A stretch of 64,000 nt of DNA from a bacterium (GTDB lineage Bacteria > Patescibacteriota > Minisyncoccia > Moranbacterales > UBA2206): contig JAKQLJ010000020.1 of NCBI GenBank assembly GCA_029567195.1, positions 3,971-67,970 of the forward strand, in the 5' to 3' direction. The notes beneath the pieces were generated by a model, which saw only the letters and a program-made list of their open reading frames with translations, did no database searches and was not told the origin of the DNA. Shown piece after piece: positions 1,187 to 56,899 of this stretch; the first letter of the stretch is position 1, and each line of letters starts with the position of its first letter. The position numbers and the translations under genes were made by a program.

Positions 1187-1310
1187 TTGTCATTCCCGCG
1201 AAAGCCATGCCTACCGGCAGGCAGGCCTGCCTACCGGCAGGCAGGCGGGAATCCAGTCTTCATAATCTAGCTTGTTTTCTGGATTCCCAATCAAGTTGGG
1301 AATGACATCG
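1187..1310. repeat. Composite GC-rich palindromic element (intergenic copy): gtcattcccgcg + 2x tandem gcctaccggcaggcaggc + gggaatccag...ctggattcccaatcaagttgggaatgac
   Basis: The outer arms ttgtcattccc/gggaatgacatc are inverted repeats. An internal 20-bp unit is tandemly duplicated (1211-1230, 1231-1250). attcccaa-tcaag-ttgggaat is an 8-bp-stem hairpin. The same cores recur at 11805-11890, 55553-55640 and 56466-56523. Confidence 0.6.
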
Positions 1311-1341
1311 GGAAGAAACTTAATATGATTTTATTATCATT

Positions 1342-3102
1342 CTATTTTATCATGTATATTTTTCCGTAGATAATGGTTTTTTGGCTCTCTGGCAGGCTTA
1401 AATCGGAGTTTTGCGGTTTGTCTTTTTCTCCGCTTTTTATGTTTAAAGACGTGGTTTCTATGCGATATTCCCTCTGAAAATACATTTTTTCTCCTAAGGG
1501 GCTTTTTTCGTATAGCTCAATATTTTTATCTGGCACAACAAGATATACATTGCTAAACCGGCTTAGTTTTATTTTTTCCAAATCTTTGGAATTAAAGAAG
1601 TAAACAGCTTGTTTGCCGTAAAGAAAATTCAACGGTCCTGCCATCATTGACCAGCCGGATCCGGAAGCTTCCCTATCCATCAAAACCAAATCGGAGGAAC
1701 TGAAATGGCGGCTCATTTCTTCAGTCTGGGCCAGTAAATTCTGGTTTTCTTTTACCGGAAAATAAGGGATGAAAATAAAAAGATTTATTATAAGCAGGGC
1801 CAGGGACAGAAAATGGAAAAATATTCTTTTTCTTTCAAAAAATTTGTCCAACAACCAAACGGAATAGAAAATGGAAACGGGAACTATGGTAAAAACAAAT
1901 CTTCTGAGCATCCAAGGGTGGTCGGAAGAAATGCTGGGATTAATAAGATACAAAAAAGCCGGCGAAGATATGAGAAGGGGAAACAAGTTTTCGTAATGTT
2001 TGTTTTTTAAGGCGTAAAAAAGGGCGATGAAAGCGATAATAACAAAATCAAAAATGGCATAGACAAAAAGAACCTTGAAAACATAAAAAAAGGAGAAAAT
2101 ATTACCGGATGGCGTAGTAGTATTTGCCAGTGAACCGAAAAGACCCTTCAGAGCATTTAAATAGAAAGGGTAATTAACGTTGAAACTGAAAAGATAAAGA
2201 ACTATCAAAGAGGCAAAAGCTACAGCCATCCATTTTTTTCTCAAAATATTTCCAAAATCGTTCCAGCTCTTTTGTTTTATGCGGATAAGAAAGATGGCAA
2301 TAGCCAAAAAAGCCAAGCCTTCAATCCTGGTAAAGGCCAGAAAAAGAAAAGAAAGAAGGGCGGACGAGAGATGGAGAGTATGTTTTCTTTCCATAAAAAT
2401 GGAAAAATTCCACAGTCCAAACCAGAAAAGAAAAAGAGCCAGGTTTTCGCTCAGAGTAAATTTAAAAAACCAGGAAAAAACAAAAGAGGTGAGGACCAAA
2501 AGCCAGGCGACAAAAGAAGGATAAGTCTTTAAATAAATTCGGCTGAAAGAAAAAAAGAAAATAAGAAACAAAAATAAGGTAATCCCGTTGGCTAAAACAA
2601 GGCCGGAAAGGCCAAAAATTGAATAAAAAGAAGCCAGCCAGGAAATGTAGCCGATGGGAAAATGGGTTATTAACTGTCCGTCCGCGGTATAGTTAAAGCC
2701 GGGAAAATTAAGCGCTTTTCCAGGACCGTAAATATTAAAAAACTCCCGAGAAGCTGGAAAGCTGAATTTTAATTGATGTTTTTGAGAGAGCCTAATGGCG
2801 GCTTCCGAAAAAGAGCCTTGGTCGCGGCCGGAAAAAATAGTGGGAGAAACAAAGGAAGACAAAATGTATACAAACAACAGGGAAATTATGATAATAACGG
2901 AAAATTTCGCGTGTTTGTAAAAAAAACGCCAATTTTTTCCGAAAATAAAAAAAAGAACGGCAGATCCTAAAATTAAATAAGCGGTTAAAATTTGCCCGTA
3001 AAATAATCCAATGATTGTCATTAAAAGGCTTAAAAAAAGAAGCCCCAACCAAAAAAGTCCCAAAATAGCCAGCAATTGGTTTTTGCCAAAATTAAATTTC
3101 AT
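1342..3102 (-). CDS. Polytopic integral membrane protein, putative GT-C-fold glycosyltransferase
   Basis: 586 aa, more than 12 predicted hydrophobic helices throughout and no soluble domain. It sits beside the glycosylation locus. Confidence 0.45.
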   Translation of the reverse strand: MKFNFGKNQLLAILGLFWLGLLFLSLLMTIIGLFYGQILTAYLILGSAVLFFIFGKNWRFFYKHAKFSVIIIISLLFVYILSSFVSPTIFSGRDQGSFSEAAIRLSQKHQLKFSFPASREFFNIYGPGKALNFPGFNYTADGQLITHFPIGYISWLASFYSIFGLSGLVLANGITLFLFLIFFFSFSRIYLKTYPSFVAWLLVLTSFVFSWFFKFTLSENLALFLFWFGLWNFSIFMERKHTLHLSSALLSFLFLAFTRIEGLAFLAIAIFLIRIKQKSWNDFGNILRKKWMAVAFASLIVLYLFSFNVNYPFYLNALKGLFGSLANTTTPSGNIFSFFYVFKVLFVYAIFDFVIIAFIALFYALKNKHYENLFPLLISSPAFLYLINPSISSDHPWMLRRFVFTIVPVSIFYSVWLLDKFFERKRIFFHFLSLALLIINLFIFIPYFPVKENQNLLAQTEEMSRHFSSSDLVLMDREASGSGWSMMAGPLNFLYGKQAVYFFNSKDLEKIKLSRFSNVYLVVPDKNIELYEKSPLGEKMYFQREYRIETTSLNIKSGEKDKPQNSDLSLPESQKTIIYGKIYMIK

Positions 3103-3206
3103 ACCATTATTATAGCTTCAAAAAAGCTTTCTGCCAATAAGCCGCCCCTTTGCTAGAAGTTGGTTTTTAAGGTAGAATTGTAAAAGAAATAATTTATCAT
3201 TCAATT

Positions 3207-4385
3207 ATGAAAATATTGGTCATCGCGCCAACTCCTTTTTTTTCTGATCGGGGAACGCACATAAGAATATTGGAAGAAGCTCTGGCTCTGGAAAAATTGG
3301 GGCATGAAATTACCATCTCTACTTATCATATTGGGAAAAATATTGATCGGAGAATTAACACCAAGATAGATGTCAGAAGGATTTTGCGCCTTCTTTTTTG
3401 GTATAAAAAGCTGGAAGCGGGACCGGATTGGCAGAAAATAATTTTGGATATCATGCTTATCAGAAAAACTTTTTTTCTGGCCAGAACCAAAAAACCGGAC
3501 ATTATTCACGGCCATCTTCATGAAGGAGTGCTCATCGGCTGGATAGTAAAATACCTTCTTTTTTGGCGCAAGATTAAATTGGTGGCTGATTTCCATGGAA
3601 GCCTTACCGGGGAGATGCTTTCTCATGGCTATCTTAAACGCGGACTCAAGGGAATTTTCTCTCAGATTGAAAAATTTATCAATAAACGTGGCGATTATGC
3701 CATAACCAGTTCCTGGGAATGCACAAAGGATGTGAAAAAATCCAGAAAAGATGGTAAAATAGAAACAGTGCTGGATGGAATTAATCTCGACAGTTTTGTT
3801 TTTTCTTCAAAAAAAGAAGAGATGAAAAAAGAATGGGAAATTCCGGACGGAAAATTTATCGTTGGTTATACCGGGGGACTCATTCCCAATAAAGGAATCG
3901 ATTATCTTTTGAAAGCTATCCCTTTAGTCTTGGAAAAACGGAAGGATGTATTTTTTTTGATTGGCGGTTTTCCTCCGGAAGAAATAGAAAGATTCATAAA
4001 AGACAAAAAATTGGGAGAATTCGTCCGTTTGGTCAGTCCTTTGGATTATTTCCGCTTGCCTGAGTTTTTGCATATTTGCGACATTGCTATCGATCCCAAA
4101 GGCAGTGATACTAACCAAGCCAGCGGCAAGATGCTGAATTATATGGCAGCCGGACTGGCCGTTGTCTGTTTTGACAAAGTTAATAACCGGGAATATTTAG
4201 GTGAAGGGGGATATTTTTGTCGGGAGATGTCTCCTCTGGCTTTGGCCGAAGGGATTTTTTATTTTCTGGAAAAACCGGAAGAGGCGAAACAAAAAGGATT
4301 ATATAACAGGGAAAAAGCTAAAACTTTTAGTTGGGATGCTCCGGCTAAAAAAATTGAATTAATATATAATAAAATAAAAAGTTAA
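3207..4385 (+). CDS. Glycosyltransferase family 4 (GT-B, glycosyl transferase group 1)
   Basis: Motif YTGGLIPNKGIDYLLKAIPLV, and a C-terminal EGGYF...E/K pattern typical of GT4 donor-binding domains. Confidence 0.8.
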   Translation: MKILVIAPTPFFSDRGTHIRILEEALALEKLGHEITISTYHIGKNIDRRINTKIDVRRILRLLFWYKKLEAGPDWQKIILDIMLIRKTFFLARTKKPDIIHGHLHEGVLIGWIVKYLLFWRKIKLVADFHGSLTGEMLSHGYLKRGLKGIFSQIEKFINKRGDYAITSSWECTKDVKKSRKDGKIETVLDGINLDSFVFSSKKEEMKKEWEIPDGKFIVGYTGGLIPNKGIDYLLKAIPLVLEKRKDVFFLIGGFPPEEIERFIKDKKLGEFVRLVSPLDYFRLPEFLHICDIAIDPKGSDTNQASGKMLNYMAAGLAVVCFDKVNNREYLGEGGYFCREMSPLALAEGIFYFLEKPEEAKQKGLYNREKAKTFSWDAPAKKIELIYNKIKS

Positions 4386-4387
4386 CT

Positions 4388-5785
4388 ATGAAAAAAATCG
4401 CAAGGTATTTAGCCGAAAAGAAGGCAATTATTATAGGTTTGGTTATTTTTATCGCTATCTTTACAGCGGCCTTTTTCTTTGCCAGCGGCAACAAAAAGAT
4501 CATCGGGCTAAAATCCCTTTCTTTGGCCAGCAAAGTATCAAAATTTTTGCCTATTACCAAGGACGAGCAAAAAGAATTGGAAGTGGTCAATAAATTGGTG
4601 GAAACATTAAATAAAAAAGACGATCGCACCTGGACATTTATGATATTTCTCCAAAATAATATGGAGCTTCGTCCAGGCGGAGGATTTCTGGGCCAGTATG
4701 CGGTAGTAAAGATAAAAAACGGAGAAGTTATTTCCACTACCATTGAGGATGCCAATTTGTTGGACCAAAGAATCACTGCCAAAGTGGCTCCTCCCTATCC
4801 ATTTAAAAGAATGATGCAGATAAAAAGCTGGAAATTTAGAGATTCCAACTTTTCCCCCGATTTTCCAACTAACATTGAAAAAGCTAAATATTTTTATCGT
4901 TTGTCTGGAAGAGGCGGTGACTTTGACGGTTTTGTTGCTGTCAATACTGAAGTGTTCAATCATATTTTGGCTCTTACCGGTCCAATTACTGTTCCCGGAT
5001 ATTCAGGAGAATATAACAGCCGGGATGGAGCTTTAAAGCTGGAAGAATTTGTGGAAAAGCAATACATTATGAATCCGGAGCTGGACACCCAAAACCGAAA
5101 AATGATTCTTCAGAAAATGGGTCCAATGATAATTGAAAAACTTTTTACTCTTGGCAATGTGACTAAAATCGCTGAATTGGTGCACAATGATCTCAAAAAC
5201 AAGAATATAATGCTCAATTTTAAGGATCCCGCTCTTCAGTCCCAAGTGGAAAGCGTTTTTTGGGACGGCAAAGTGGCAACCGATTGGGGATCGGATTATT
5301 TGATGCTGGTGGATGCCAATATGGGGGCTTTAAAAACTGATTATTACATCAAGCGGGAAATTTCCTATGATGTTGATTTGACGGCAGAGAAGCCAACGGT
5401 TACCCTTAATATCAAATATAAAAATACTGCTCCTTACGGCGATTGGCGAACAAGCGATTATCACACCTTTCTTCGGGTTTACGTGCCGAAAGGATCGACT
5501 TTTTTGGAAAGAACCATGGTAGGTTATCCTAATATTGGAGAAGAATTCGGCAAAACTTATTTCGGGGTGATTGTCCATGTGCTTATAAATGGAGAAACAA
5601 ACGGAATGCTTAAATATGAGCTTCCGGCTGACTTTAACAAGGATGATTACCGGCTTTTGGTTCAGAAGCAATCAGGAGTGGGTGACGTGCCGATAAAAAT
5701 TCACCTGAAAACCAAAGACGGAGAATTTACCCAAGAATCAATTCTCAATCATGACACAAGATTTGAGTTTCAGAAGGGAAAATAA
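4388..5785 (+). CDS. Exported protein with N-terminal TM anchor; possibly DUF4012-like
   Basis: N-terminal helix IIGLVIFIAIFTAAFFFA, then a soluble domain with an LRPGGGFLGQYAVV motif. The family assignment is from memory only. Confidence 0.4.
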   Translation: MKKIARYLAEKKAIIIGLVIFIAIFTAAFFFASGNKKIIGLKSLSLASKVSKFLPITKDEQKELEVVNKLVETLNKKDDRTWTFMIFLQNNMELRPGGGFLGQYAVVKIKNGEVISTTIEDANLLDQRITAKVAPPYPFKRMMQIKSWKFRDSNFSPDFPTNIEKAKYFYRLSGRGGDFDGFVAVNTEVFNHILALTGPITVPGYSGEYNSRDGALKLEEFVEKQYIMNPELDTQNRKMILQKMGPMIIEKLFTLGNVTKIAELVHNDLKNKNIMLNFKDPALQSQVESVFWDGKVATDWGSDYLMLVDANMGALKTDYYIKREISYDVDLTAEKPTVTLNIKYKNTAPYGDWRTSDYHTFLRVYVPKGSTFLERTMVGYPNIGEEFGKTYFGVIVHVLINGETNGMLKYELPADFNKDDYRLLVQKQSGVGDVPIKIHLKTKDGEFTQESILNHDTRFEFQKGK

Positions 5786-5806
5786 TACTTAGAGTTTTTC
5801 AAAAGT

Positions 5807-6988
5807 ATGAAATCATTTCTGGTAAAACTCGGAAAAATATATAAGATGATCAGAAAAAACGGTCCTTGGAACGGATGCAGGATCGTTTTTATGTATGTCG
5901 GAATATTCATAAAAAGCCTTTTCGGAGTTAAGTCGGGAGATATCCTTATCATTACCGGCGGAGTGGGTGATAGCGCTTTTTATCGGGCCGGTAACCAAAA
6001 AGAAGAATTGAATATGCACGGTTTTCGCTGTTTTTCTACTATCACCGATAATCCTTTTCTTTTAAAATATGTTTCCCGGTTTAAAATTTTTATTTTTCAC
6101 CGAACAATTGTCACTCCTAAAATTGCCGCATTTTTGGAAGAAATAAAAAAAGCGAAAAAAGAGATAATTTTTGATACTGATGATCTGGTTTATGATATAA
6201 AATATTTTGAGAATACGGACAGCTATCAGAGTATGAACGCTTTGGAAAAACGCCAATATGAAAAAGGGGTGGGAGAGGAAATTGTGAAAGACGGTTATGT
6301 AAAAGTGGCTACAACTACCACCAGTTTTCTGGCCAACAAACTAAGGGAATCGGGGAAGATTGTTTATATTTCCAAAAATAAAATTTCCAACCACGAATTG
6401 GAGATAGCGGAAAAAATACGCCAAAATTTCAAGAAAAAAGAGGATGGGATTGTCAGAATCGGCTATTATAGCGGCACTATTTCCCACAATAAGGATTTTG
6501 CTTCCATTACTCCGGCGCTTATGAATATTTTAGAAAAGTATGAAAAGACGGAATTGCTTTTAGCCGGACCGCTGGACAGTGAAAACGAGCTGAATAAATT
6601 TAAGGACAGAGTTAAAAAGCTGCCTTTTGTGCCAAGGGATCAATATTATGAAAATCTTTATTTGTCTGATATCAATCTGGCTCCCTTGATTAAAGGCGAT
6701 CCTTTTTGCGAATCAAAATCGGAAATCAAATTTACGGAACCGGGAGTTTTGGGAGTGCCGACGGTGGCAATTAGGAATCAGACCTTTTCTGAAGCCATAG
6801 AAGACGGGGTGGACGGGTTTTTAGCGGACAATATTTCCGAATGGACAGAAAAAATATCCCGGTTAATTGAAAATGAAAATTTACGGCGGGAAATGGGAGA
6901 AAAAGCGCGGGAAAAAGTTTTACGCGAATATTCTAACAAAAATAGTCATAACGAGAAATATTACAATTATCTAAAAAGCAAATTATAA
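5807..6988 (+). CDS. Glycosyltransferase, GT4-like C-terminal domain
   Basis: C-terminal half FTEPGVLGVPTVAIRNQTFSEAIEDGVDGFLADN...EKAREKVLREYS matches the GT1/GT4 donor-binding domain. The N-terminus is divergent. Confidence 0.55.
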   Translation: MKSFLVKLGKIYKMIRKNGPWNGCRIVFMYVGIFIKSLFGVKSGDILIITGGVGDSAFYRAGNQKEELNMHGFRCFSTITDNPFLLKYVSRFKIFIFHRTIVTPKIAAFLEEIKKAKKEIIFDTDDLVYDIKYFENTDSYQSMNALEKRQYEKGVGEEIVKDGYVKVATTTTSFLANKLRESGKIVYISKNKISNHELEIAEKIRQNFKKKEDGIVRIGYYSGTISHNKDFASITPALMNILEKYEKTELLLAGPLDSENELNKFKDRVKKLPFVPRDQYYENLYLSDINLAPLIKGDPFCESKSEIKFTEPGVLGVPTVAIRNQTFSEAIEDGVDGFLADNISEWTEKISRLIENENLRREMGEKAREKVLREYSNKNSHNEKYYNYLKSKL

Positions 6989-7057
6989 GGTTAAAAAGGA
7001 TTATTGAAAATTAATTTTTTTTGAAAATTATAATTATTTAATAGTCAGAAGATAAAA

Positions 7058-11206: not shown

Positions 11207-12874
11207 ATGGCTGATCAAAATATGCCCGCCAAAGGCGGGTCCGCCTTTGGCGGAAAAATTTCAATTTCTTACCCTCCTTTGGAATCGGAAAAAGGCGTAG
11301 CGTGCCTGAGTCAAAATCGCCAGTTTCAATGGTTTGCCCATCCGACTTACATTTATCCGGTCATTCCGGCTTATGCCGCGTCGCTGTTGGCCAAAAACGG
11401 TTACCAGGTTTTTTGGGATGACGCTATTGCAGAGGAGCTGACTTATGATCAATGGAAAGAAAGAATAATGCGGGAAAAGCCGGACGTCATTGCTATAGAA
11501 ACCAAAACGCCGGTCGTAAAGATGCACTGGAGGATAATTGATGAGATAAAAAAAGAATTGTCGAATTTCTCCCTCCCCTCTGTCCCTTCGGGACATCTCC
11601 CCTCGGGCAAGGGAGAAGGCAATGGATGGAAGCCAATCTTTGTTTTGATGGGGGATCATGTGACAGCGCGCCCTGAAGAATCGCTCAAGAATTGCCAGGT
11701 AGATTATGTAATGGCTTCAGGTGACTACGATTTTATGCTTTTAAATCTAGCCAATCATTTGAGTAAAAACGAACCGCTTGAAGGAGGATTTTGGTATAGA
11801 AAAAGTTGTCATTCCCGGACCTACCTGCCAGAAAGGCAGGAAAGCGGTAATTTAGAGACTGGATCCCCAATCAAGTCGGGGATGACAAATTCAGAAATAA
11901 CTTCTGAATTTGTCAATTCCGGTCCATCAGACATTTCCAAACACAATCTTGACACATTGCCTATAATTGACCGGAAACTCACCAGATGGAAGATGTATGC
12001 TTACAAAAACGGCAATTTCAAATATACTCCCGGCGCTTATATGATGAGCGGCCGCGATTGCTGGTGGGGAAAATGCACTTTTTGTTCCTGGACAACTTTT
12101 TTTCCAGGGGAAAAATTTCGCACTATGTCTGCCCAAAAGGCGCTGGAAGAAGTGGAAAATCTTATCCGGCTGGGAGTGAAAGAAATTATGGAAGACAGCG
12201 GATCTTTGCCGATTGGAAAATGGCTCGATGATTTTTGCAAGGGAATGATTGATAGGGGTTACAATAAAAAAGTGACCATCAGTTGCAATATGCGGATTAC
12301 CGGCATAAAAAAATTGGAAACATGGAAAATGATGAAAAAGGCGGGTTTTAGATTCATCCTTTTCGGTCTGGAATCGGCCAATCAGGAAACTCTGGACAAA
12401 ATCAACAAAAATCTCAAAGTCGAAGAGATTGAGCCGGGACTCAAGATGTGTAAATCCGGAGGGCTCGAACCGCATATAACGGCGATGATCGGCTATCCTT
12501 GGGAAACAAAAGAAATGGCCCAAAAAACGATTGATTTGGCTAAAGATTTATTTAAAAAAGGTTATGTTGATACGCTCCAAGGAACGATTGTCATTCCTTA
12601 CCCCGGAACGCCGCTTTATAAGTATTGCGAAGAAAATAATATGCTTCTGACCCGCGATTATGATCATTTTGACCAGCGAGAAATGGTTATGAAATCATCC
12701 TTATCGTCAGCTGACGCCAAAGAGATGGTCCAGGGCCTTTATAAATCATTCATGAGCCCGCAGTTTATCTGGCGGAAAATAACTTCTATCAGAAGTTTTG
12801 CCGATATCAAGTTTCTTTTTATGGCCGGCTGGAAATGGCTGGGTAAGATGACGGATTTTCACTCTGTCAAATAA
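11207..12874 (+). CDS. Cobalamin (B12)-binding domain radical SAM protein carrying three in-frame GC-rich hairpin insertions
   Basis: N-terminal B12-binding-like region, radical SAM cluster motif DCWWGKCTFC (Cx4Cx2C) and TIM-barrel motifs (ILFGLESANQETLD). Paralogous to 21544-23076. Confidence 0.7.
   Translation: MADQNMPAKGGSAFGGKISISYPPLESEKGVACLSQNRQFQWFAHPTYIYPVIPAYAASLLAKNGYQVFWDDAIAEELTYDQWKERIMREKPDVIAIETKTPVVKMHWRIIDEIKKELSNFSLPSVPSGHLPSGKGEGNGWKPIFVLMGDHVTARPEESLKNCQVDYVMASGDYDFMLLNLANHLSKNEPLEGGFWYRKSCHSRTYLPERQESGNLETGSPIKSGMTNSEITSEFVNSGPSDISKHNLDTLPIIDRKLTRWKMYAYKNGNFKYTPGAYMMSGRDCWWGKCTFCSWTTFFPGEKFRTMSAQKALEEVENLIRLGVKEIMEDSGSLPIGKWLDDFCKGMIDRGYNKKVTISCNMRITGIKKLETWKMMKKAGFRFILFGLESANQETLDKINKNLKVEEIEPGLKMCKSGGLEPHITAMIGYPWETKEMAQKTIDLAKDLFKKGYVDTLQGTIVIPYPGTPLYKYCEENNMLLTRDYDHFDQREMVMKSSLSSADAKEMVQGLYKSFMSPQFIWRKITSIRSFADIKFLFMAGWKWLGKMTDFHSVK
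11223..11258. repeat. GC-rich near-perfect palindrome inside the 5' end of the radical SAM CDS (gcccgccaaaggcgggtccgcctttggcgg)
   Basis: cccgccaaaggcggg and ccgcctttggcgg are mutually complementary hairpins. They encode PAKGGSAFGG in-frame. Confidence 0.45.
11566..11625. repeat. In-frame GC-rich double hairpin (gtcccttcgggac / tctcccctcgggcaagggaga) within the radical SAM CDS
   Basis: Two stem-loops of 5-6 bp stems. The local GC is far above the surrounding coding sequence. It encodes LPSVPSGHLPSGKGEG. Confidence 0.4.
11805..11890. repeat. In-frame palindromic mobile-element copy (ttgtcattcccgg...ctggatccccaatcaagtcggggatgacaa) inside the radical SAM CDS
   Basis: It shares its termini (ttgtcattccc / ggggatgacaa) and the ccccaatcaagtcgggg hairpin with the 1187-1310 element. 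It translates as SCHSRTYLPERQESGNLETGSPIKSGMTNS without a stop. Confidence 0.6.
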
Positions 12875-12889: not shown

Positions 12890-12975
12890 ATCCATTCAAC
12901 ATTAATTCGTCATCCTGAATTTGATTCAGGATCTTCTAATAAACCTGCCTACCGGACAGGCAGGCAAGTTCAGCA
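12890..12975. terminator. Pair of hairpins between convergent genes (atcctgaat-ttg-attcaggat; cctgcc-taccggaca-ggcagg), putative bidirectional terminator
   Basis: A 9-bp and a 6-bp stem sit in the 125-bp gap between the stop of the + strand rSAM gene (12874) and the stop of the - strand TPR gene (13000). The second hairpin is related to the gcctaccggcaggcagg repeat core. Confidence 0.4.
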
Positions 12976-30128: not shown

Positions 30129-32966
30129 ATGTTTGAAGAAATATTGCATAAAATATTTAACAAGACAAAAATGTGGTTTCGAAAGGAATCCGCCTGGGCT
30201 TTTCTATTGGCTTTCATCAATCTTATTGTTATCTGGAATATTTTCGATACCAATTTTCTGATGGGGGTAGATGAATTTTCTCTTCAGTATGATGGATTTT
30301 TTGCCGAAAAATCATCGCTATATACATGGAATGACTGGATTAATCTGGGCCATAACAATCTTTCTACTAATAATATTGCTTATCTGGCCTTGTTTAATTT
30401 TTTTAATTTTATTTTTTCTTCTTCTGTTGTCGAAAGGATTCTTTACTGGATACTTTTCTTTTTCTGCTGTTACTCAATGTTTATCTTACTGGCCAGATAT
30501 TACAAAATAAATTATTTCGTCGCTGCAACCTTTTCCCTGTTTTTTGAATACAATCTCCACCATGTGATTATGCCGCTGGCTGTAAATCCCAAGCTGGTTT
30601 ATATTGCCCTGCCCATGGTCATTATCATATTAAAAAAATATATTCTGGACAGAAAACTGCTGAAACTTTCTATTGTTATGCCTCTTGGCCTTTTGGTAAT
30701 TGCCCAGGTGGCGGCCAACCCGCCGGCTGTTTCGATTATTTTTATTTTAATTTTGGCTTATCTTATTTATCAAATTATTTTAAAAAACATTAAATTTAAA
30801 GAAGCGTTGCTTTTCTTTTTTGGAGCGTCATTTTTTTTCGTTCTTTTCAATTTTTGGTGGCTTTCCACTCTGATTCCAGCCATGCTGGAATCATCAGGTA
30901 ATATTGTTACGGGTTTAAACGCGGCGATTCTAAGAGCTTCGCAATATCTCAATGTTTTTAACGTAATGAGATATTTGGGCTATGGGCCATGGTGGCTGGG
31001 TGAGGGAGTCGGACATAAATATGTCCAATTTTCCCAAGTTTTTGACGGCAGTTATTTCCTTATTGCTTATTCTTTTCTCCCGCCACTTTTTATCATCGGC
31101 GCCTTGGCACTTTTTGGTCTTAGTAAGCAAAAAAACTACTGGAAAGAAAAAGATCTCATTTTTTGGGTGCTGATTTTTATTTTTGGCGTATTCTTGGCGA
31201 AAGGAATTAACGCGCCCGGAGGGTGGTTTTTTGGTTTTCTGTGGCAAAACATCCCGGGCTTTTGGATATTCCGCGACCCTTGGGCGAAATTCATCCCATT
31301 GGTGGTTTTATCTTCGGTAATCACCGGGGCGATAGTTTGTGATTATATCATTCAAAGATTCAAGATTTTCAGGGTGGCAATTTTAGGAATTATGTTGATA
31401 ACTGTATATTTTTATGCTGTCTTCCCTGATATTTATTATAACGATAACTTTTTGACTATGCGCAGCTTGCATGTCGACGTTCCCCAATATTGGGAGAATT
31501 ACGCGGATAAATATGAAAAGAAAAAACTTGTTATGCGCAATCTTACTTTTCCCAAAACTCCCAACGGCAGCCACTTTTTTTCTAGCGGATTTTCCGGTCC
31601 CTTGCCTTTTATTTCTCTTGTTTCCCGCCAGCCTTTTATTATCTATCCCAATTTTAGCAATACGGGAAATGTCAACGACAGAATAATCGATGATTTTTAC
31701 GGTTCCGAATATAAAAATTCCAAACTGTGGAGTTATTTGAATGTCGGTTATGCTACTCAGCAGAATGATTATAACTGGCTGGTCGGATATAAAGACACTT
31801 TTCCTCCTTCGGAAATGGAGAAAATTCTAAATAGCATAGAATTTTTGGAAAAAAAGGATAGTTTTGGAAATTTTGACTTCAATTATATCAGAGGAATAGA
31901 TTTCGGAAGAGACAAGACGGGTGAGGAAAGGCGATTGATTGCCGATGAACTTCGCGGTCGATCGGCACTAGACATTTATAAATTAAAGCCAAATTATTTT
32001 CTTCCGCTTGTTTATATCCCCAAAGAAATAACCTTTTCTTCGAGGGAAGTAGAAAGTATTGCGCGAATTTCCAATGAACAAAAATTGGGCGTTTCTTCAG
32101 CAGTTTTTTTTCTAAACCAAAACAACGGCGAAATCGATGAAGAAAATATTAAAAAAACAAAAATCCTGAATAATTATCAGAAAAGTGATGATACCACGGT
32201 GGAATTTAAAAAAATCAATCCGACAAAGTATAGGATTATAGTGCATAATGCCAGTTCTAAATTTCCTTTGGTTTTTTCAGAGAGTTTTCATGAAAAATGG
32301 AAAATTTATCTGGTCAATGAATTTTCTAAGGATAATAAGCCTGCAAGCTTCTTAAGCGAATATAAAATTTTGGATGGAAATGATGATGATCAGGCAACCA
32401 AAGAGGAGCTTAGTGGTTATATACAAAACGGTTGGATTAGCACATTGGGAGAGGGAAAAGAAAAACAAACTGAATATTACAAGCAAAAGGACAGCAAAAG
32501 GAAATTGGATTATGTGGAAAAATATAAAATAAGTTTTGTTTCTAAAAATTTTCAAGGAACCATTCAAAACGATAATTTACCCGATGGTTATTTTTGGGAA
32601 ACATGGTTTAAAAATCCGATCAGCGAGGAGGATAATCATCTTATGGTTAACGGATATGCCAACTCTTGGATTATAGACGTAGAGAAAATGTGCAAGGACA
32701 ATCCGAATTTTTGCGTAAATAATCTTTCTTGTGAAACGGGGCAGGGCAAATCTTGTCTTTCACAAGACAAGGGTGAATCTTATGATTTTGAACTGGTGGT
32801 TGAATTTTGGCCGCAAAGACTTTTTTATATCGGAGTGGTCGTTTCTTCGGTTGCCCTGTTGCTCTGCGGGGGATATTTAGCGTATGATTGGCGCAAGAGA
32901 ATGAATAATAAATTTTTTATAAATAAAAAAGGGGAAGAATATAAAAATGGCAAAAAAATTATTTAG
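30129..32966 (+). CDS. Large polytopic membrane protein, YfhO-like (putative GT-C glycosyltransferase), 945 aa
   Basis: About 13 N-terminal TM helices, a large extracytoplasmic domain and a final C-terminal TM. The C-terminal motif NGYANSWIID...WPQRL is shared with 34469-36628 (GYANGWKID...YYPTRL). Confidence 0.5.
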   Translation: MFEEILHKIFNKTKMWFRKESAWAFLLAFINLIVIWNIFDTNFLMGVDEFSLQYDGFFAEKSSLYTWNDWINLGHNNLSTNNIAYLALFNFFNFIFSSSVVERILYWILFFFCCYSMFILLARYYKINYFVAATFSLFFEYNLHHVIMPLAVNPKLVYIALPMVIIILKKYILDRKLLKLSIVMPLGLLVIAQVAANPPAVSIIFILILAYLIYQIILKNIKFKEALLFFFGASFFFVLFNFWWLSTLIPAMLESSGNIVTGLNAAILRASQYLNVFNVMRYLGYGPWWLGEGVGHKYVQFSQVFDGSYFLIAYSFLPPLFIIGALALFGLSKQKNYWKEKDLIFWVLIFIFGVFLAKGINAPGGWFFGFLWQNIPGFWIFRDPWAKFIPLVVLSSVITGAIVCDYIIQRFKIFRVAILGIMLITVYFYAVFPDIYYNDNFLTMRSLHVDVPQYWENYADKYEKKKLVMRNLTFPKTPNGSHFFSSGFSGPLPFISLVSRQPFIIYPNFSNTGNVNDRIIDDFYGSEYKNSKLWSYLNVGYATQQNDYNWLVGYKDTFPPSEMEKILNSIEFLEKKDSFGNFDFNYIRGIDFGRDKTGEERRLIADELRGRSALDIYKLKPNYFLPLVYIPKEITFSSREVESIARISNEQKLGVSSAVFFLNQNNGEIDEENIKKTKILNNYQKSDDTTVEFKKINPTKYRIIVHNASSKFPLVFSESFHEKWKIYLVNEFSKDNKPASFLSEYKILDGNDDDQATKEELSGYIQNGWISTLGEGKEKQTEYYKQKDSKRKLDYVEKYKISFVSKNFQGTIQNDNLPDGYFWETWFKNPISEEDNHLMVNGYANSWIIDVEKMCKDNPNFCVNNLSCETGQGKSCLSQDKGESYDFELVVEFWPQRLFYIGVVVSSVALLLCGGYLAYDWRKRMNNKFFINKKGEEYKNGKKII

Positions 32967-50076: not shown

Positions 50077-50105
50077 AATTATTTTTAATAAAATTAATAA
50101 AATAA

Positions 50106-51647: not shown

Positions 51648-53223
51648 AAACCCGACTTTTAATCCTTTCTTCTATATCAAGCATTTTCTTTTCGTATGAA
51701 ATGTTTTTTAGGCTGATATTGTCAGTTTTTTTGCCTTTTATCTTAAAACAAAGTCCCCGATAATCCTGGCAATCAAAGCCGGAAACAGTTATATTTTGAC
51801 TTTCTTTGATTTCAAAAAGGGGATTGTTGTCTATCATTTTTAAAGTTATATTTTCAAAATTGATATTTTTTGCTTTGCTTAGGTATATTCCGTCCTTGGA
51901 AAGTATTTTCAAATTGGAAAAATTTATATTTTCCATCACCCCTTCAAGAAGTCCGTCTACTTTCAAGGTTCTTTGGTATCCAGAAGCTTCGATGTTTTTA
52001 ATATTGATATTTCTTATCTCCGGTTCCCGATCAATACTCGATTTCAATTTGGAATTATAAGAAAGGTCAATGATAGCTATTTCATTGGTGATATTTTCCA
52101 TCTTTATATCTTCCACCCACACATTCTCTATGAAGCCTCCCCGGCTCTTGGCTGACTTTATGCGGATGCCATTGTCAGTATTGGAGAAAATAGAATCATG
52201 AACAAAAACATTTCTTACTCCTCCTGACATTTCACTTCCAATAGCTATTGCTCCATGACCTTTTTGGAAGTAGCAGTTTTTGACGATGATGTTTTCTGAC
52301 GGGCGGTTGACTCTGAATCCGTCTTCTTCCAGTCCGGATTTTATGGCGATAACATCGTCGCCAGTGGAGAATGATGAATTTTCAATGACAACATTCCGGG
52401 AAGAATCAATAACAATGCCGTCAGTGTTGGCGGAATATGTGTCCACCTTTATTTTTCTGATTATAATGTTTTCAGAATAAACCGGATGAATGGTCCACAT
52501 CGGTCCGTCGCCGATAGACAAATCTTCAATCAAAATATTTTTACTGTTTACAAATTGGATAAAGGAAGGGCGCAATCCTGATTTTTCTGTGCCAAAAATT
52601 CTTTTTTCCGTTGGGACGCCGGAAGAAGCCATTTCAAACAATCTTTGGCGTTCTTCCCGACTTTCTACGCTGTCTTTTTGGGCCCAAGTCCACCAAAAAT
52701 CTCCGTTTCCAGTGAGCTTACCTTTTCCGGTTAAGGCTATATTTTGGCAATTAAGTGCGTAAATCAATGGAGAAAAACCATACATTTCCATTCCCTGAAA
52801 GCGGGTAAAAACCACCGGCAAATAATCGTTAAAATCGGTGCTGAAAACTATTTCCGCCCCTTCTTCCAGATGAAAATTTATGTTGCTTTTCAGGTGAATG
52901 GCGCCACTTTTCCATTTACCGGCAGGGATAACCACTTTTCCGCCTCCTTTTTGATGGCAGTCGTCGATGGCTTTTGTTATGGAGTTTGTGCTTAGCCCTT
53001 CGTCATTGTCAATGGCTCCGTAATCTCGGATATTACAAATCAAATTGGGAAATGCCGGCTCTTTTAAATCAGGCATGGAAAAAGGAACCGGCTTATCTTT
53101 TTCCGATTCTTTTTGACTGGTTTCTTTTGTTGAATTAGCTGTTTTTTCTTGATGCCAAAAATAAAAAGCGGTGCCGAATAGAAAAGTAAAAACAAAAAAA
53201 GCAAATAAAATTTTTTTATTCAT
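51637..53223 (-). CDS. Secreted glycoside hydrolase family 28-like (polygalacturonase-type right-handed beta-helix)
   Basis: Signal peptide, then DYGAIDNDEGLSTNSITKAIDDCHQKGGGKVVIPAGKWKSGAIHLKSNINFHLEEGAEIVFS. Later NTDGI.IDS and G.GHG..IGSE motifs are typical of GH28. Confidence 0.65.
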   Translation of the reverse strand: MNKKILFAFFVFTFLFGTAFYFWHQEKTANSTKETSQKESEKDKPVPFSMPDLKEPAFPNLICNIRDYGAIDNDEGLSTNSITKAIDDCHQKGGGKVVIPAGKWKSGAIHLKSNINFHLEEGAEIVFSTDFNDYLPVVFTRFQGMEMYGFSPLIYALNCQNIALTGKGKLTGNGDFWWTWAQKDSVESREERQRLFEMASSGVPTEKRIFGTEKSGLRPSFIQFVNSKNILIEDLSIGDGPMWTIHPVYSENIIIRKIKVDTYSANTDGIVIDSSRNVVIENSSFSTGDDVIAIKSGLEEDGFRVNRPSENIIVKNCYFQKGHGAIAIGSEMSGGVRNVFVHDSIFSNTDNGIRIKSAKSRGGFIENVWVEDIKMENITNEIAIIDLSYNSKLKSSIDREPEIRNINIKNIEASGYQRTLKVDGLLEGVMENINFSNLKILSKDGIYLSKAKNINFENITLKMIDNNPLFEIKESQNITVSGFDCQDYRGLCFKIKGKKTDNISLKNISYEKKMLDIEERIKSRVFID

Positions 53224-53251
53224 TGGTGAAAAATTTTATTAACAAATCAAT

Positions 53252-54679
53252 TTATATGCCAAAAAGTCTCAAAGCCCATCCGAACAAGCTAAAAGATTTT
53301 TCTTTCTGCTGCACAAAAGCTTCATTTTCCTTTAGGCGACCGTCCATCTCATTTTTTAATTGGTCAATGTCCAGTTTGACTTCATCAAGATTAGTATTGT
53401 TGGAAAGTTCACTAAGGACGGCTATGTTTGCCTTAATTTTCTCATTGTATTCCTTGACAGGGGAAACCGCTTTTGGATCGAAGCCGAAAAAGAAAGATTT
53501 AAAGCGGTTGGTTTTGTTAATTTCTGTTTTTTTATTAGAAATTTCCTCCCATAATCTATTTTTATCTGATTTTATTTGCGCCAAAGTTTCCTTATTCTTT
53601 GTTTCTTTTTCCTCTTCCTGTTTGAAAACATCTTCTTCCTGCTCTTGTTTTACAATTTCTTCGGCGGATTTGTCTTCTTCTTTTATGGCTGTTTCACTCT
53701 CGATCGTTTCATTGGTTTTCTTTTCTTCTTCCGTTACCGCCTTTACCACATCGCAAGATCCACTGATGGCCTTTTTTTTGTTAAGTTCGATCTTATTGTT
53801 TGTTACGTCCAGAGAATCACTCCAATAATTGCTAGGCCTGCCTTCTCCGCCGCTGGGAGCGCCGCAATACATGCCGTAATGTCCATTTCGGCTGATAGTG
53901 TTTTTAGTGATGGTTATTTTTCCCGTTTTGCTGGCGCTGGAATAGAACTGGTTGGCTATGCCGCTGGCTTTATTTTTTTTAATGTCATTTCCTCTAATGG
54001 TAAGATTGGCGCTGCCGACCACTATTTCAATGCCACCTTCCCCGTTGCTGAATACATCGTTGCCAATAACCGAACCGCGCACTTTTTCCCTGATATCAAT
54101 TCCTTCTTCATCATTATCGTGAATGGAATTATCAACAATATCAATAGCCCTTCCTTTTTGGACATACATTCCCTTGGCGTTATAAGCCAATTCTGATTTT
54201 TCAATCACTACTGGAGAGCTGCCTTCTGTCATGTTGACTCCATTTTTTCCGGCGTTTTTTATAATACAGCCGGAAACAGTGGTTTTACCCTTGAGATTTA
54301 GGGCGTTCATGCCTCCCGAAACAGTCAGATTTTCCAGCTTATTGTTGCCTTCCAGATTAAGATTATTAAAATCATGCCCCTTTATTATAACCTTGGCTTT
54401 TTCTTGGCCATAAAGCTCTGTTTCCTTGGGAAGAGTCAGGTCGCCATCATACTCGCCATTTTTAAGATGGATTTTTCTTTCGCCGGAACCGTTGCTTTCA
54501 GCTTTTTCCACCGCTTTTTTAAGAGTCTTATATGGCTTGTCAGATGTCCCTTCTTCATCGCCGTCATAGCTCTTGTCAACATAAATGTTATAACTGGCTG
54601 CCCGGGCCATTTGAGGACAAAAAATAACAAACAAAAAAAGCATGACCGGGAGCAAAAGACACCTTTTAAAATGGTTCAT
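53252..54679 (-). CDS. Secreted right-handed parallel beta-helix repeat protein with acidic coiled-coil C-terminal region
   Basis: Signal peptide (MNHFKRCLLLPVMLFLFVIFCPQMARA), repeated NxGxxI/V motifs, then an EEDK/KE-rich tail. Confidence 0.55.
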   Translation of the reverse strand: MNHFKRCLLLPVMLFLFVIFCPQMARAASYNIYVDKSYDGDEEGTSDKPYKTLKKAVEKAESNGSGERKIHLKNGEYDGDLTLPKETELYGQEKAKVIIKGHDFNNLNLEGNNKLENLTVSGGMNALNLKGKTTVSGCIIKNAGKNGVNMTEGSSPVVIEKSELAYNAKGMYVQKGRAIDIVDNSIHDNDEEGIDIREKVRGSVIGNDVFSNGEGGIEIVVGSANLTIRGNDIKKNKASGIANQFYSSASKTGKITITKNTISRNGHYGMYCGAPSGGEGRPSNYWSDSLDVTNNKIELNKKKAISGSCDVVKAVTEEEKKTNETIESETAIKEEDKSAEEIVKQEQEEDVFKQEEEKETKNKETLAQIKSDKNRLWEEISNKKTEINKTNRFKSFFFGFDPKAVSPVKEYNEKIKANIAVLSELSNNTNLDEVKLDIDQLKNEMDGRLKENEAFVQQKEKSFSLFGWALRLFGI

Positions 54680-54696
54680 TAAATTTGAAATAAATA

Positions 54697-56271
54697 TTAT
54701 TTATTTTTTTTAAATCCAAAACTTCGGGCTAAAAACTGCAAATCTTCTTTTTTTATCTCTCTTAAAGTATATAAAATAATAAGGTAAAAGACAAACAGAA
54801 TTACGGACCAGGGAATGAAAATCAAGCTTCCTTTGGAAAAAAAGAAGGAAACTGCGTAGACAACAAGTCCGGCCGAAGATATTTTCAAAAAACTTTTCAG
54901 TTTTATTTTCACGCCGAAATCTCTCCAGACGTAATAGAGCATAAAAAAGGTGACGACGGCCGAAGCGATAGAAGTGGCGATGGCCGATCCCATAATGCCG
55001 TATTTTTTTATTAAAAAATAATTCAAAATGGTGTTGACAGCCAAGCCAAAAATGGAAAGAATCATGGGGATTTTAACTTTTCCGGCGCCGCTCATAACAA
55101 AGCAAAAAACATAATAAATCGTTAAAAAGCCGACACCCCAGACCAAAACGGACATTGGAGCGGCGGCATCAATATAGCGGCTGGAATAAAAAAGCTTGAT
55201 TATTGGCGCGGAAAAAACGCTCATAAGGATGACAGACGGAACAAGAAGAACAAGCATAAGTCGTAGTGTTTGATTGACGATTTCGCCGGCTTTGGTATGA
55301 TTTTTTTCCGCTGTCGTTTTGGAAATAACAGGAAGAAGCACGACAGTCAGAGCGTAAAAAATATAATAAGGAATGCGGCCGATGGTAAGTGCGGCATTGT
55401 ATATGCCGGTCAGATAATCATCTTTCAAAATGCCTTTTACCAGATATAAATCAATGCTGATCAGAAGTTCGTAAGCCAAAAAGAAGATGACAATTTGCCA
55501 GGCATAGTTGACTAACTTCTTCCAGTCAAATGTTATGTCATCGGGCATCTTGTTGTCATTCCCGCGAAGGCGGGAATCTAGCATGGAAATTTTAGCTATC
55601 TCATTGGATGTCGGATCAAGTCCGGGATGACAATTTTCTAATTCTATTTCCTTTGCTTTGATTTTCGGACTTATCCGGATTTTATCGATGGCATAACCGA
55701 TAAAGAACAAAATTCCGGGAGCCATAATATATCCAACTATGGAACCTTTCAACTTGAAATAATAGGCCAAGGCAATGATGAATATCAATCGTAAAACTGA
55801 GCGGGTAATTTTCAGGATTGATTGGATGCCAAATTCGTGAAGTCCGGTGAAATAAGAAAAATAAAATGAAGCGGCGGCAAAGGCGGGAATTATAAGCGTG
55901 GAAATTTGGAAAAGGGGAGTGAGGGTTGGATCTCCAAGAATCTTGGAAATAAGCGGCGCAGACAAGAAAAAAAGGACAGTGATGGAGCCTATAATGATGC
56001 TTTGTAAAATAATAGCTTGCCGTTTTATTATCCCAACCATTCTCGGATTAGATTCAAAAATTTCACTGATATATTTGCTCATGGCGGTCGGAATGCCGTT
56101 GCCGATAAGAATGATGACCATGGTGGTAAGAGTTACCACTAACCCGTATCGTCCATAATCTGCCGGGCCCAAAATTCTTCCGACAACCGAGTGAATGACA
56201 AAACCGGAGATATTAAAGATTATCTCCGAAACAGTGACCCAAATTGTGGCCTTGGCGAAACTTTTAGACAT
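54697..56271 (-). CDS. Polysaccharide biosynthesis protein / flippase (Wzx, MOP superfamily) carrying an in-frame palindromic element
   Basis: 524 aa, 12-14 TM helices and a Wzx-like N-terminus (ATIWVTVSEIIFNISGFVIHSVVGRILGPADYGRYG). A hydrophilic insert ENCHPGLDPTSNEIAKISMLDSRLRGNDNKMP lies mid-protein. Confidence 0.7.
   Translation of the reverse strand: MSKSFAKATIWVTVSEIIFNISGFVIHSVVGRILGPADYGRYGLVVTLTTMVIILIGNGIPTAMSKYISEIFESNPRMVGIIKRQAIILQSIIIGSITVLFFLSAPLISKILGDPTLTPLFQISTLIIPAFAAASFYFSYFTGLHEFGIQSILKITRSVLRLIFIIALAYYFKLKGSIVGYIMAPGILFFIGYAIDKIRISPKIKAKEIELENCHPGLDPTSNEIAKISMLDSRLRGNDNKMPDDITFDWKKLVNYAWQIVIFFLAYELLISIDLYLVKGILKDDYLTGIYNAALTIGRIPYYIFYALTVVLLPVISKTTAEKNHTKAGEIVNQTLRLMLVLLVPSVILMSVFSAPIIKLFYSSRYIDAAAPMSVLVWGVGFLTIYYVFCFVMSGAGKVKIPMILSIFGLAVNTILNYFLIKKYGIMGSAIATSIASAVVTFFMLYYVWRDFGVKIKLKSFLKISSAGLVVYAVSFFFSKGSLIFIPWSVILFVFYLIILYTLREIKKEDLQFLARSFGFKKNK
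55553..55640. repeat. In-frame palindromic mobile-element copy within the flippase CDS (ttgtcattcccgcgaaggcgggaatc...gtccgggatgacaa)
   Basis: Same termini and internal cccgcg-aa-ggcggg hairpin as the 1187 and 11805 copies. Read on the minus strand it gives NCH...RLRGNDN with no stop. Confidence 0.55.
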
Positions 56272-56899
56272 TGTTTTTTATTTCTTCGAAAATTTGCATC
56301 TTGTCCCTGTTGCCGTCAATTATTTTCCAATTCCATTGGTCGGATTTCTTATCATAAATTTCCTTTTTCTTCCGAAGATATTCTATGCCCTGTTCAGGTT
56401 TTCTTTCGCGTTGCATGATTTGTTCGGGAGAGGCTTGGAGGTAAATCGCTATATCGGGACGTATAATTTTGTCATTTCCGCCAAAGCCATGCTTACCGGC
56501 AGGCAGGCGGTAATGACAACTTAAGAATTCTATATTTATTATGCTATCATAAAAATAACGGTCGCTGAGAATATAGTCATAACCGGAATTACGTAATTTA
56601 TTGCGTAATTTTTCAAATCTCCAGATATCGATTTTTAAAAATATTTTTCTCAGTTGAATTTGCATCCAGTTGGCCTTGGTGACGCTTTTTTCTTCGCTGT
56701 TTTTAATATTGCATTTTCCGGTCAACCGGCAAATCAGGCAATATTTATTTTTAAAATTGGCCAGCTTTTTAGCCGTCCCGTGCTGGATGGCATGGAAATA
56801 AAAAACCTTCTTGCCTTGCTGTTCAAGATAGTTTTTGAGCAGTTCTATTTGGGTTGATTTTCCACTGCCATCAAGGCCTGAGATAGTAATAATTTTCAT
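56264..56899 (-). CDS. tmk: Thymidylate kinase-like P-loop kinase carrying an in-frame palindromic element
   Basis: P-loop GLDGSGKSTQ, a DRYFYDSII (DRY..S) motif and a PDIAIYLQASPEQIMQRERKPEQ lid region. A 19-aa insert SCHYRLPAGKHGFGGNDKI lies between the two. Confidence 0.6.
   Translation of the reverse strand: MKIITISGLDGSGKSTQIELLKNYLEQQGKKVFYFHAIQHGTAKKLANFKNKYCLICRLTGKCNIKNSEEKSVTKANWMQIQLRKIFLKIDIWRFEKLRNKLRNSGYDYILSDRYFYDSIINIEFLSCHYRLPAGKHGFGGNDKIIRPDIAIYLQASPEQIMQRERKPEQGIEYLRKKKEIYDKKSDQWNWKIIDGNRDKMQIFEEIKNNV
56466..56523. repeat. In-frame palindromic mobile-element copy within tmk (ttgtcatttccgcc-aaagccatgcttaccggcaggcaggc-ggtaatgacaa)
   Basis: 14-bp inverted arms. The core aaagccatgc(c/t)taccggcaggcaggc is identical to the 1201-1230 copy. 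It is 57 nt long, a multiple of 3. Confidence 0.6.

Follow-up and report, generated by a model that had tools for sequence, protein, structure and literature searches.

Introduction

How can palindromic DNA repeats come to lie inside protein-coding genes that appear intact, and to which known repeats are they related? The question is raised by a 64,000-nt (64-kb) stretch, hereafter the window (mean GC content 0.376), of a metagenome-assembled genome (MAG) of the Moranbacteria, a lineage of the Patescibacteria or candidate phyla radiation (CPR). In a preliminary description, made from the DNA letters, it was proposed that members of one family of palindromes interrupt three genes of this window in frame, in the manner of the Rickettsia palindromic elements (RPEs). 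Here we find that three such elements are present in genes encoding a B12-binding radical SAM (rSAM) protein, a Wzx-type flippase and a thymidylate-kinase-like protein (Tmk), that the inserted segments are missing from most orthologs, and that the elements match a known superfamily of tagged repetitive extragenic palindromic (REP) hairpins. In our view they are likely to be non-autonomous repeats of this superfamily that would have spread through hairpins of single-stranded DNA (ssDNA), with selection leaving the in-frame copies as survivors.

Repeat copies in the window

Four copies, designated A to D, were delimited:

1187-1308, plus strand: copy A, a 122-nt inverted dimer, intergenic
11806-11888, plus strand: copy B, an 83-nt dimer in the B12-radical-SAM gene, encoding residues 200-228 (SCHSRTYLPERQESGNLETGSPIKSGMTN)
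55553-55633, minus strand: copy C, an 81-nt heterodimer in the Wzx-type flippase gene, encoding residues 213-240 (NCHPGLDPTSNEIAKISMLDSRLRGNDN)
56469-56519, minus strand: copy D, a 51-nt single long hairpin in the Tmk-like kinase gene, encoding residues 127-144 (SCHYRLPAGKHGFGGNDK)

These are essentially the places at which the preliminary description had put the family, with corrected ends (copy C, for example, ends at 55633 and not at 55640). The shared termini and internal similarity that it reported are borne out. The common ends of the four copies are TTGTCATTCCC...GGGAATGACAA, and the 11-mer TTGTCATTCCC, allowing at most one mismatch, occurs 12 times in the window versus 1.69 times expected, with 12 or more occurrences in 0 of 100 shuffles. 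Copy A matches copy D at 92.5% identity over 40 nt (E 1e-10) and copy B at 90% identity over the 29-nt right module, and its first 16 nt are identical to those of copy C. When each copy was folded as ssDNA and compared with shuffled versions of itself, z-scores of -7.0 (A; -6.97, -32.7 kcal/mol), -3.5 (B), -3.0 (C) and -4.7 (D; -4.68) were obtained. The copies are also richer in GC than the window, at 47-53% versus 37.6%, a smaller difference than the approximately 60% versus 35% that had been suggested.

Two extra members, which are neighbors of each other, were not on the initial list:

12908-12936, plus strand: a REP monomer that carries a CGTC tag and belongs to another subfamily (CGTC-ATCCTGAA-TTTGA-TTCAGGAT-CTTC), in a convergent intergenic spacer
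12944-12964, plus strand: a solo small hairpin unit, CCTGCCT-ACCGGAC-AGGCAGG, intergenic (fold z -3.99)

The full element is an inverted pair of hairpins with the tags outermost; copies A, B and C are such dimers, with spacers of 20-30 nt between the hairpins. In a canonical hairpin, the tag TGTC is followed by a stem of 8 bp that begins with AT and encloses a loop of 4-5 nt, and then by a CCAG or CTAG tail. Because the tags of the two hairpins point outward, the 11-nt ends of the element have the appearance of terminal inverted repeats. At each end of copies A to D the stem comes directly after TGTC, and in the monomer at 12908 it comes after CGTC. In copy A, the stem of hairpin 1 (A1, 1189-1252) is ATTCCCGC/GCGGGAAT and its loop is enlarged to 45 nt; a 23-nt spacer separates A1 from hairpin 2 (A2, 1283-1306; ATTCCCAA-CTTGA-TTGGGAAT in the minus-strand reading). 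With the hairpins of the other copies numbered likewise, the stem of A1 is also that of C1, the ATTCCCAA/TTGGGAAT stem is found in A2 and the ATCCTGAA/TTCAGGAT stem in the monomer; the stems of B2 and D carry one mismatch and those of B1 and C2 are degenerate. The loop is GAAG in C1, 5 nt long in A2, B2 and the monomer, and 25 nt long in B1 and D. The tail is CCAG in A1, A2 and B2 and CTAG in C1.

The long loops have a recurring content. One or two CCTGCC..GGCAGG units have enlarged the first hairpin's loop to 25-45 nt in copies A, B and D; copy A holds two such units in tandem (CCTACCGGCAGGCAGG / CCTGCCTACCGGCAGGCAGG, at 1210-1245) and copy B one (CCTGCC-AGAAA-GGCAGG, at 11820-11840). Atypical loops are known from some taxa among the CGTC-tagged REPs (PMC3733652). 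The same unit was seen nested in tagged hairpins of other subfamilies, around position 5738 of a Doudnabacteria locus (L059) and around position 4051, on the minus strand, of an Ignavibacteriaceae locus (L079), which suggests that it is a second-order element targeting hairpin loops. Copy D looks like copy A minus everything between two GGGAAT repeats, and we infer from this comparison that it is a deletion derivative.

The window is 100% identical to contigs of three independent assemblies (JGI, NCBI and Logan), and the sequence is no assembly artefact. A Logan contig of the same strain (L003, SRR5007225) ends at window position 55552, where copy C has its outer edge. Because assemblers stop at repeats, such a break is what one would anticipate for an element that is repeated in the community concerned. 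Rfam detected no RNA family in the whole window at the gathering threshold, nor in positions 1-1400 with E-values up to 1, and a scan of the window for tRNA and tmRNA genes found none. The approximately 1.2 kb upstream of copy A (1-1186) lacks both Rfam matches and any open reading frame (ORF) of at least 80 aa, which is unusual in this densely coding window.

Insertion into three intact genes

The genes that contain copies B, C and D are the following:

11207-12874, plus strand: B12-binding radical SAM protein, 555 aa (Radical_SAM and B12-binding Pfam matches)
54697-56271, minus strand: Wzx/MOP-family polysaccharide flippase, 524 aa (Polysacc_synt at residues 6-195, MatE at 273-419; also a MurJ match)
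56264-56899, minus strand: thymidylate-kinase-like P-loop kinase, 211 aa (Thymidylate_kin match)

For each of the three host proteins, the best homologs belong to Candidatus Moranbacteria or other Patescibacteria. To ask whether the segments could be ancestral protein regions had been put forward as a check, and alignments with approximately 115-119 orthologs per protein family show that they are not, in rSAM, Wzx or Tmk. At the insertion point the median loop length of the orthologs is 9 aa versus 40 aa here for rSAM, 11 aa versus 39 aa for Wzx and 15 aa versus 21 aa for Tmk. Most orthologs of the three proteins are without inserts, and those of the rSAM protein mostly measure 485-500 aa, versus 555 aa in the window. 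Judging from these alignments, copies B, C and D are, at the level of sequence, read through in frame in intact genes whose orthologs do not have the segment, and the central proposal of the preliminary description, RPE-like insertion of palindromes into intact genes, is upheld. The catalytic residues are retained in the rSAM protein (radical-SAM residues C285, C290 and C293) and in the kinase (P-loop). Peptides predicted to span the junctions are EFLSCHYR, GGNDKIIRPD, ELENCHPGLDPT and SGMTNSEITSEF.

For the rSAM gene, the insertion could be followed at the DNA level. An orthologous element with the same left boundary is present in two related species, represented by L124 (rSAM protein 85% identical to that of the window) and L125 (81%), and there is a clean gap at this place in two others, L127 and L128. 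The rSAM elements of the three species keep their hairpin complementarity despite differing stem bases (GT/AC versus GC/GC). On this comparison, the rSAM insertion is old enough to be shared with two related species, and it has persisted across speciation.

Directly 3' of copy B there is an AT-rich hairpin with a 10-bp stem (11887-11911, AAATTCAGAA-ATAAC-TTCTGAATTT, translated NSEITSEF), which is present in L124 and not in L125. Some of the rSAM orthologs P0191, P0215, P0217 and P0226 are approximately 950 aa long and contain intein and LAGLIDADG Pfam domains; in other lineages the rSAM gene is thus also a host of inteins.

An insertion in surface loops had been anticipated, and this agrees with inserts that lie in low-confidence coil in the models (rSAM and Tmk) or in a linker between the two Pfam-matched halves (Wzx). 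In the AlphaFold2 model of Tmk (mean predicted local distance difference test score, pLDDT, 84.9), residues 130-149 form a coil with pLDDT of about 53 between a helix (116-129) and a strand (150-155). In that of the rSAM protein (mean pLDDT 79.9), residues 203-232 form a coil with pLDDT below 50, versus approximately 80 or above in the flanks. The low-confidence coils of both models are mainly at inserted segments. The Wzx insert falls in the linker that joins the N- and C-terminal halves of the protein. The inserts add 17-28 mostly hydrophilic residues to a domain linker of the rSAM protein, to the inter-lobe linker of Wzx and to a variable loop of Tmk. Based on these models and on the Pfam matches of Wzx, the inserts would sit outside the folded core, in tolerated loops that are predicted to be disordered coil in rSAM and Tmk. 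In other Moranbacteria the same loops contain other subfamilies of the tagged-REP superfamily.

The rSAM gene contains two more in-frame palindromic inserts, both unrelated to copies A to D:

11567-11629, plus strand: GC-rich hairpin insert, in frame, residues 121-141 (FSLPSVPSGHLPSGKGEGNGW), no CGTC tag
11226-11253, plus strand: perfect palindrome with a 13-bp stem (CCGCCAAAGGCGG-GT-CCGCCTTTGGCGG) at the 5' end of the rSAM ORF

The insert at 11567-11629 shows that in-frame hairpin insertion is not confined to one repeat family. It is missing in the three nearest relatives, L124, L125 and L127; L128 has a different hairpin at that site, and a differing PSPCKGEGG hairpin is found there in other rSAM orthologs. 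The palindrome at 11226-11253 supplants the usual Met-Lys start and adds PAKGGSAFGG, with the ORF starting at an upstream ATG. The AlphaFold2 model of the rSAM protein has pLDDT below 50 at residues 129-138 and 1-14, matching both inserts. An extension of the form PAKG.SAFGGK was also observed in the rSAM orthologs P0123 and P0131.

Reading frame of the inserts

The preliminary description had copies B, C and D read in one orientation and one frame, without stops and with lengths divisible by three, as a hallmark of the RPE type. Orientation is not shared: relative to the asymmetry of copy A, copy B is forward and copies C and D are reverse complements, and these two are read reverse-complemented because their genes are on the minus strand. 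Nor is length a common property. Measured from end to end, the copies are 122, 83, 81 and 51 nt long, so that only C and D are multiples of three, and none of the intervals originally given for the three coding copies (86, 88 and 58 nt) is divisible by three.

The absence of stops is confirmed, and the frame is indeed common to the three coding copies, all of which are entered in the phase x-TGT-CAT to give S/N-C-H. Of the six possible frames, however, none is open in A, one in B, one in C and four in D, and for B and C the sole open frame is the frame used. The common frame of B, C and D is partly or largely forced, because few frames are open. Relatives elsewhere are translated in various phases: a TrmD gene (L241) reads its copy as V-I-P...G-N-D, FtsZ (L144) has one close to the N-terminus that reads V-I-P...G-M-T, a membrane protein (L060) contains S-F-P...G-N-D and an O-antigen-ligase-like protein (L066) C-H...D-D. 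Members of the family are therefore found in all three phases, and a shared frame cannot be taken as its hallmark.

Within the rSAM, Wzx and Tmk families, every recognized element-bearing ortholog starts in the C-H phase. This applies to approximately 13 of 119 Tmk, 10 of 115 rSAM and 20 of 119 Wzx orthologs, with elements of several distinct subfamilies and with insertion points 0-4 codons apart. Among 196 related dimer orientations taken from metagenome and viral contigs, 89 have an open C-H phase, 69 an open V-I phase and 63 an open S-F phase. The encoded peptides have a mean grand average of hydropathy (GRAVY) of -0.65 in the C-H phase, +0.03 in the less hydrophilic V-I phase (p = 1.5e-11) and -0.91 in the S-F phase. 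These values suggest that the bias toward C-H is explained in part by freedom from stops together with hydrophilicity.

In-gene copies are rare in the cross-phylum scans, at approximately 3 of 146 genome-scan matches and 2 of 56 low-GC metagenome loci (small numbers). In the window, coding copies make up three of the four dimers or long hairpins, a biased comparison in that the window was chosen for this feature.

Relationship to known repeats

The CGTC-tagged REP superfamily is defined by a CGTC, TGTC or CCTC tag, stems of 8-9 bp starting with AT, loops of 4-5 nt and a CCA tail; its members are mostly dimers, and intragenic dimers encode 20-30 residues (PMC3733652). The left hairpin of copy C (55554-55581, TGTCATTCCCGCGAAGGCGGGAATCTAG) matches the dRS3 pattern ATTCCC-N8-GGGAAT exactly, agrees with 27 of the 28 positions of the Neisseria Transformation Sequence (NTS) consensus, and is an exact match to the degenerate regular expression of the Ssn-related motif (SRM), all three definitions being those of PMC11893778. 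As a census of the window the strict SRM expression is poor, with a single hairpin caught; the others were found by a tag-plus-stem scan, which has a high background (14 matches versus 6.9 in simple shuffles).

Similar sequences are widespread. A blastn search returned matches of 35 nt with 91% identity in two N. gonorrhoeae genomes, at 11-12 places per genome, along with matches on Azospirillum and Sphingopyxis replicons. In species-representative genomes, the exact 19-mer TTGTCATTCCCGCGAARGC was found at no fewer than 120 loci (a lower bound), which span many phyla, among them the Patescibacteria (with several CPR lineages), Bacteroidota, Planctomycetota, Pseudomonadota and Omnitrophota, and which include the genome of a Tisiphia (Rickettsiaceae) symbiont (L037). 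Complete dimers are present on 13 viral contigs and at least 120 metagenome contigs, and LDSRLRGND monomers in L020, P0076 and P0089. In an Azospirillaceae MAG (L083, 2529-3043), the 19-mer occurs five times with an exact period of 124 nt, that is, as a tandem array of elements. Another intragenic copy is found in an alphaproteobacterium, Sphingopyxis indica, where the annotated coding sequence of ileS (isoleucine-tRNA ligase) on plasmid NZ_CP076395.1 covers a related hairpin (32499-32532).

From these matches, the elements of the window can be assigned to the CGTC/TGTC-tagged REP hairpins, a known cross-phylum superfamily that includes the Neisseria dRS3/NTS repeats. According to Di Nocera et al. 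(2013, PMC3733652), the subfamily CGTC-1 corresponds to dRS3 in Neisseria and also to RPE-6 in R. conorii; RPE-6 and RPE-4 (Ogata et al.) have been reclassified as CGTC-1 and CGTC-4 REPs, respectively (PMC3733652). The resemblance to RPEs is thus probably one of homology and not only of analogy, where the equivalence with RPE-6 is based on PMC3733652 and on the exact 19-mer in the Tisiphia genome.

Like the RPEs, the elements studied here are short palindromes lying in frame in intact genes of a small-genome bacterium, with dimers that encode approximately 20-30 residues. As with the RPEs, the inserts are predicted to be outside the folded core, related species have insertions in common, and the architecture of tag, stem, loop and tail is largely the same. 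In contrast to the RPEs, the host is a MAG of the Moranbacteria from an engineered or anaerobic metagenome and not an alphaproteobacterial endosymbiont or Rickettsia, most copies have a TGTC instead of a CGTC tag, and several hairpins contain a nested secondary unit. Similar to dRS3/NTS-SRM repeats in Neisseria, they have a near-identical hairpin with an oriented tag and tail, they spread across phyla, and in related loci (L024, L134, L218 and L228) small GIY-YIG genes are flanked by the motif, as in the Ssn system. The Neisseria repeats differ in being intergenic and arranged in mosaic arrays, whereas three of four dimer or long-hairpin copies are coding here; moreover, the window contains no ssnA gene.

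Inverted doublets of tagged hairpins that serve as the replicating unit, are non-autonomous and produce no target duplication are also known as REPINs and REP/BIME elements, which are mobilized by RAYT transposases (IS200/IS605-like Y1), and in both cases an ssDNA hairpin is presumably recognized. Unlike REPINs, the elements carry a CGTC/TGTC and not a GTAG tag, and the candidate partner here is a GIY-YIG nuclease; no RAYT is associated with CGTC repeats (PMC3733652). [quoted passage not shown]

RPE-type insertion into genes is already known; to our knowledge, the Moranbacteria are a host lineage without an earlier report. In the literature we found nothing on such insertions in CPR genomes. 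Patescibacteria are covered neither by PMC3733652 nor by PMC11893778, and the latter describes no in-frame or intragenic copies.

Proposed mobilization and alternative explanations

How might the copies have spread? In the explanation that we favor, ssDNA hairpin intermediates would be handled by an enzyme acting in trans, for which the best candidate is a single-domain GIY-YIG nuclease of the Ssn type, whose gene would be located in another part of the genome or have arrived by horizontal transfer. Selection would purge insertions that shift the frame, bring stops or hit structured regions, and in-frame copies in permissive loops would survive. The recurrent C-H...N-D/M-T frame may then be largely a product of this filter, as the frame that most often yields stop-free, hydrophilic peptides, and some hairpin loops may have been invaded in turn by the smaller CCTGCC..GGCAGG unit.

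SsnA is a GIY-YIG nuclease (cd10448) of 94 aa that binds the hairpin on one ssDNA strand and cuts approximately 3 nt upstream of the tag. The motif typically flanks the ssnA gene, and the discoverers of SsnA remarked on the resemblance of this arrangement to an insertion sequence (IS; PMC11893778). In four loci that were retrieved solely for carrying the motif (L024, L134, L218 and L228), ORFs of 95-96 aa encode single-domain GIY-YIG proteins (PF01541, E 1e-14 to 1e-18) within 600 nt of a strict SRM match. In the syntenic glycan cluster of the closest relative, a Moranbacteria locus (L124, 6488-6827), there is an 84-aa single-domain GIY-YIG gene (PF01541, E 6e-16) with perfect 16-nt inverted repeats (CCCCACACCAATTATG) on both sides, the left one of which holds the start codon. 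These flanking repeats are unlike the TGTC hairpins, the protein belongs to a different-looking subgroup, and the cassette is absent from the window. By analogy with the Ssn system, mobilization through ssDNA hairpins by an Ssn-type enzyme is the best available hypothesis.

Some observations weigh against this explanation. There is no GIY-YIG gene or transposase in the 64-kb window, as judged from Pfam searches of ten small ORFs and two six-frame scans for a GIY-YIG regular expression. We know of no enzyme, Ssn included, that has been demonstrated experimentally to transpose these repeats, and Ssn is known only as an ssDNA nuclease that modulates transformation. Only one of approximately eight hairpins in the window passes the strict SRM expression, the rest having expanded loops or degenerate stems. 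In addition, peptides in the S-F phase are hydrophilic too and this phase is often open, so that avoidance of stops and hydropathy are insufficient to explain the exclusive use of C-H.

It is conceivable, though unlikely, that the hairpins are selected functional DNA sites, namely, as in Neisseria, targets of an Ssn-type ssDNA nuclease that trims incoming transforming DNA and would here limit or shape the recombination of a variable glycan cluster in a naturally competent CPR bacterium, and that their translation is incidental. The copies punctuate a glycosylation and polysaccharide cluster of approximately 55 kb (A lies 1.2 kb into the window, B 11.8 kb, and C and D 55.5-56.5 kb), NTS repeats in Neisseria gather around variable surface genes and modulate transformation (PMC11893778), and the preserved pairing of the rSAM elements in three species, though their stem bases differ, would fit a selected site. 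However, four copies in one window are too few for a claim of clustering, no Ssn gene is found in the window, and several of the hairpins are degenerate or have loop insertions that probably spoil recognition. Placement in permissive loops is, moreover, what a purely selfish model of insertion and filtering predicts. We regard as improbable, to a greater degree, the reading of the elements as classical MITEs, that is, deletion derivatives of an IS that are moved by a DDE transposase through their 11-nt TIRs, with no role for hairpins or Ssn. The ends TTGTCATTCCC/GGGAATGACAA are perfect or near-perfect inverted repeats, and an element in the tmk gene of L262 has TA at each side. Yet the flanks of the window copies, T...A or T...T, reveal no target-site duplication of a consistent kind, and the MITE reading was set aside for that reason; no IS with these ends is present in any locus examined, and the apparent TIRs correspond to the tag plus half-stem of two inverted REP hairpins, which also exist as monomers.

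There is very little probability that the segments are removed before the proteins mature, by RNA processing, translational bypass or protein splicing, leaving the proteins unaltered. Strong hairpins would form in the mRNA as well, and the inserts start with Cys-His and end with Asn-Asp, superficially like intein junctions. Against this, 17-28 aa is far below the size of an intein, and an open frame that is kept across the divergence of the window, L124 and L125 would be needless if the segment were excised; an intein or intron reading was rejected on these two grounds. RPE-decorated proteins of Rickettsia are, furthermore, expressed according to literature cited in PMC3733652. Practically negligible is the chance that we are dealing with ordinary lineage-specific loops, or with a misassembly, and a coincidental similarity of DNA. 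Loop length does vary in all three protein families, but the similarity is at the DNA level and extends to the intergenic copy and to repeats of other phyla, the hairpin folds are significant, and the three independent assemblies are identical.

Other features of the window

A perfect 27-nt inverted repeat (58421-58447 and 58887-58913), with arms 439 nt apart, has its left arm over the start codon of a DUF218 gene (58429-58980) and its right arm near the 3' end of that gene. A tyrosine recombinase gene (56956-57789) is located approximately 0.6 kb away, and the segment between the arms could be invertible. This XerC/D-like recombinase, whose gene adjoins tmk, was also considered as a partner of the hairpin repeats and was rejected, as nothing connects it with them. 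A 32-nt direct repeat (GCAACTTCGCATGTGCCGAAACGTT...) occurs at 59146-59177, 59869-59900 and 60427-60458, each time just upstream of a small gene and with two of the copies 94% identical; these copies could act as a promoter or operator common to the small genes, or represent a different family of repeats.

Implications for CPR genomes

The phenomenon itself is not new, and the evidence does not imply a function for the inserts. The analysis brings together the literature on RPEs, as selfish DNA in coding genes, and that on Ssn, NTS and SRM, and extends both to the CPR. As a practical consequence, the repeat-encoded peptides (CHSRESGN..., ...LDSRLRGND and ...AFAGMT) can be masked in the annotation, alignment and structure prediction of CPR proteins.

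A more far-reaching interpretation, which we consider doubtful but possible, is that in Moranbacteria, and perhaps in the CPR generally, tagged hairpins are an active and ongoing source of loop variation, as might be read from the repeated independent colonization of the same Tmk, Wzx and rSAM loops, the near-constant C-H frame and the nested units. If true, a live ssDNA-based insertion machinery, Ssn-like or other, would be operating in CPR genomes, with either a mechanistic preference for frame and target or strong selection on the peptide of the C-H frame. CPR genomes are small and dense, with scant intergenic room, and they offer a natural setting in which to examine how such repeats can persist within genes, as well as whether Ssn-type enzymes mobilize them.

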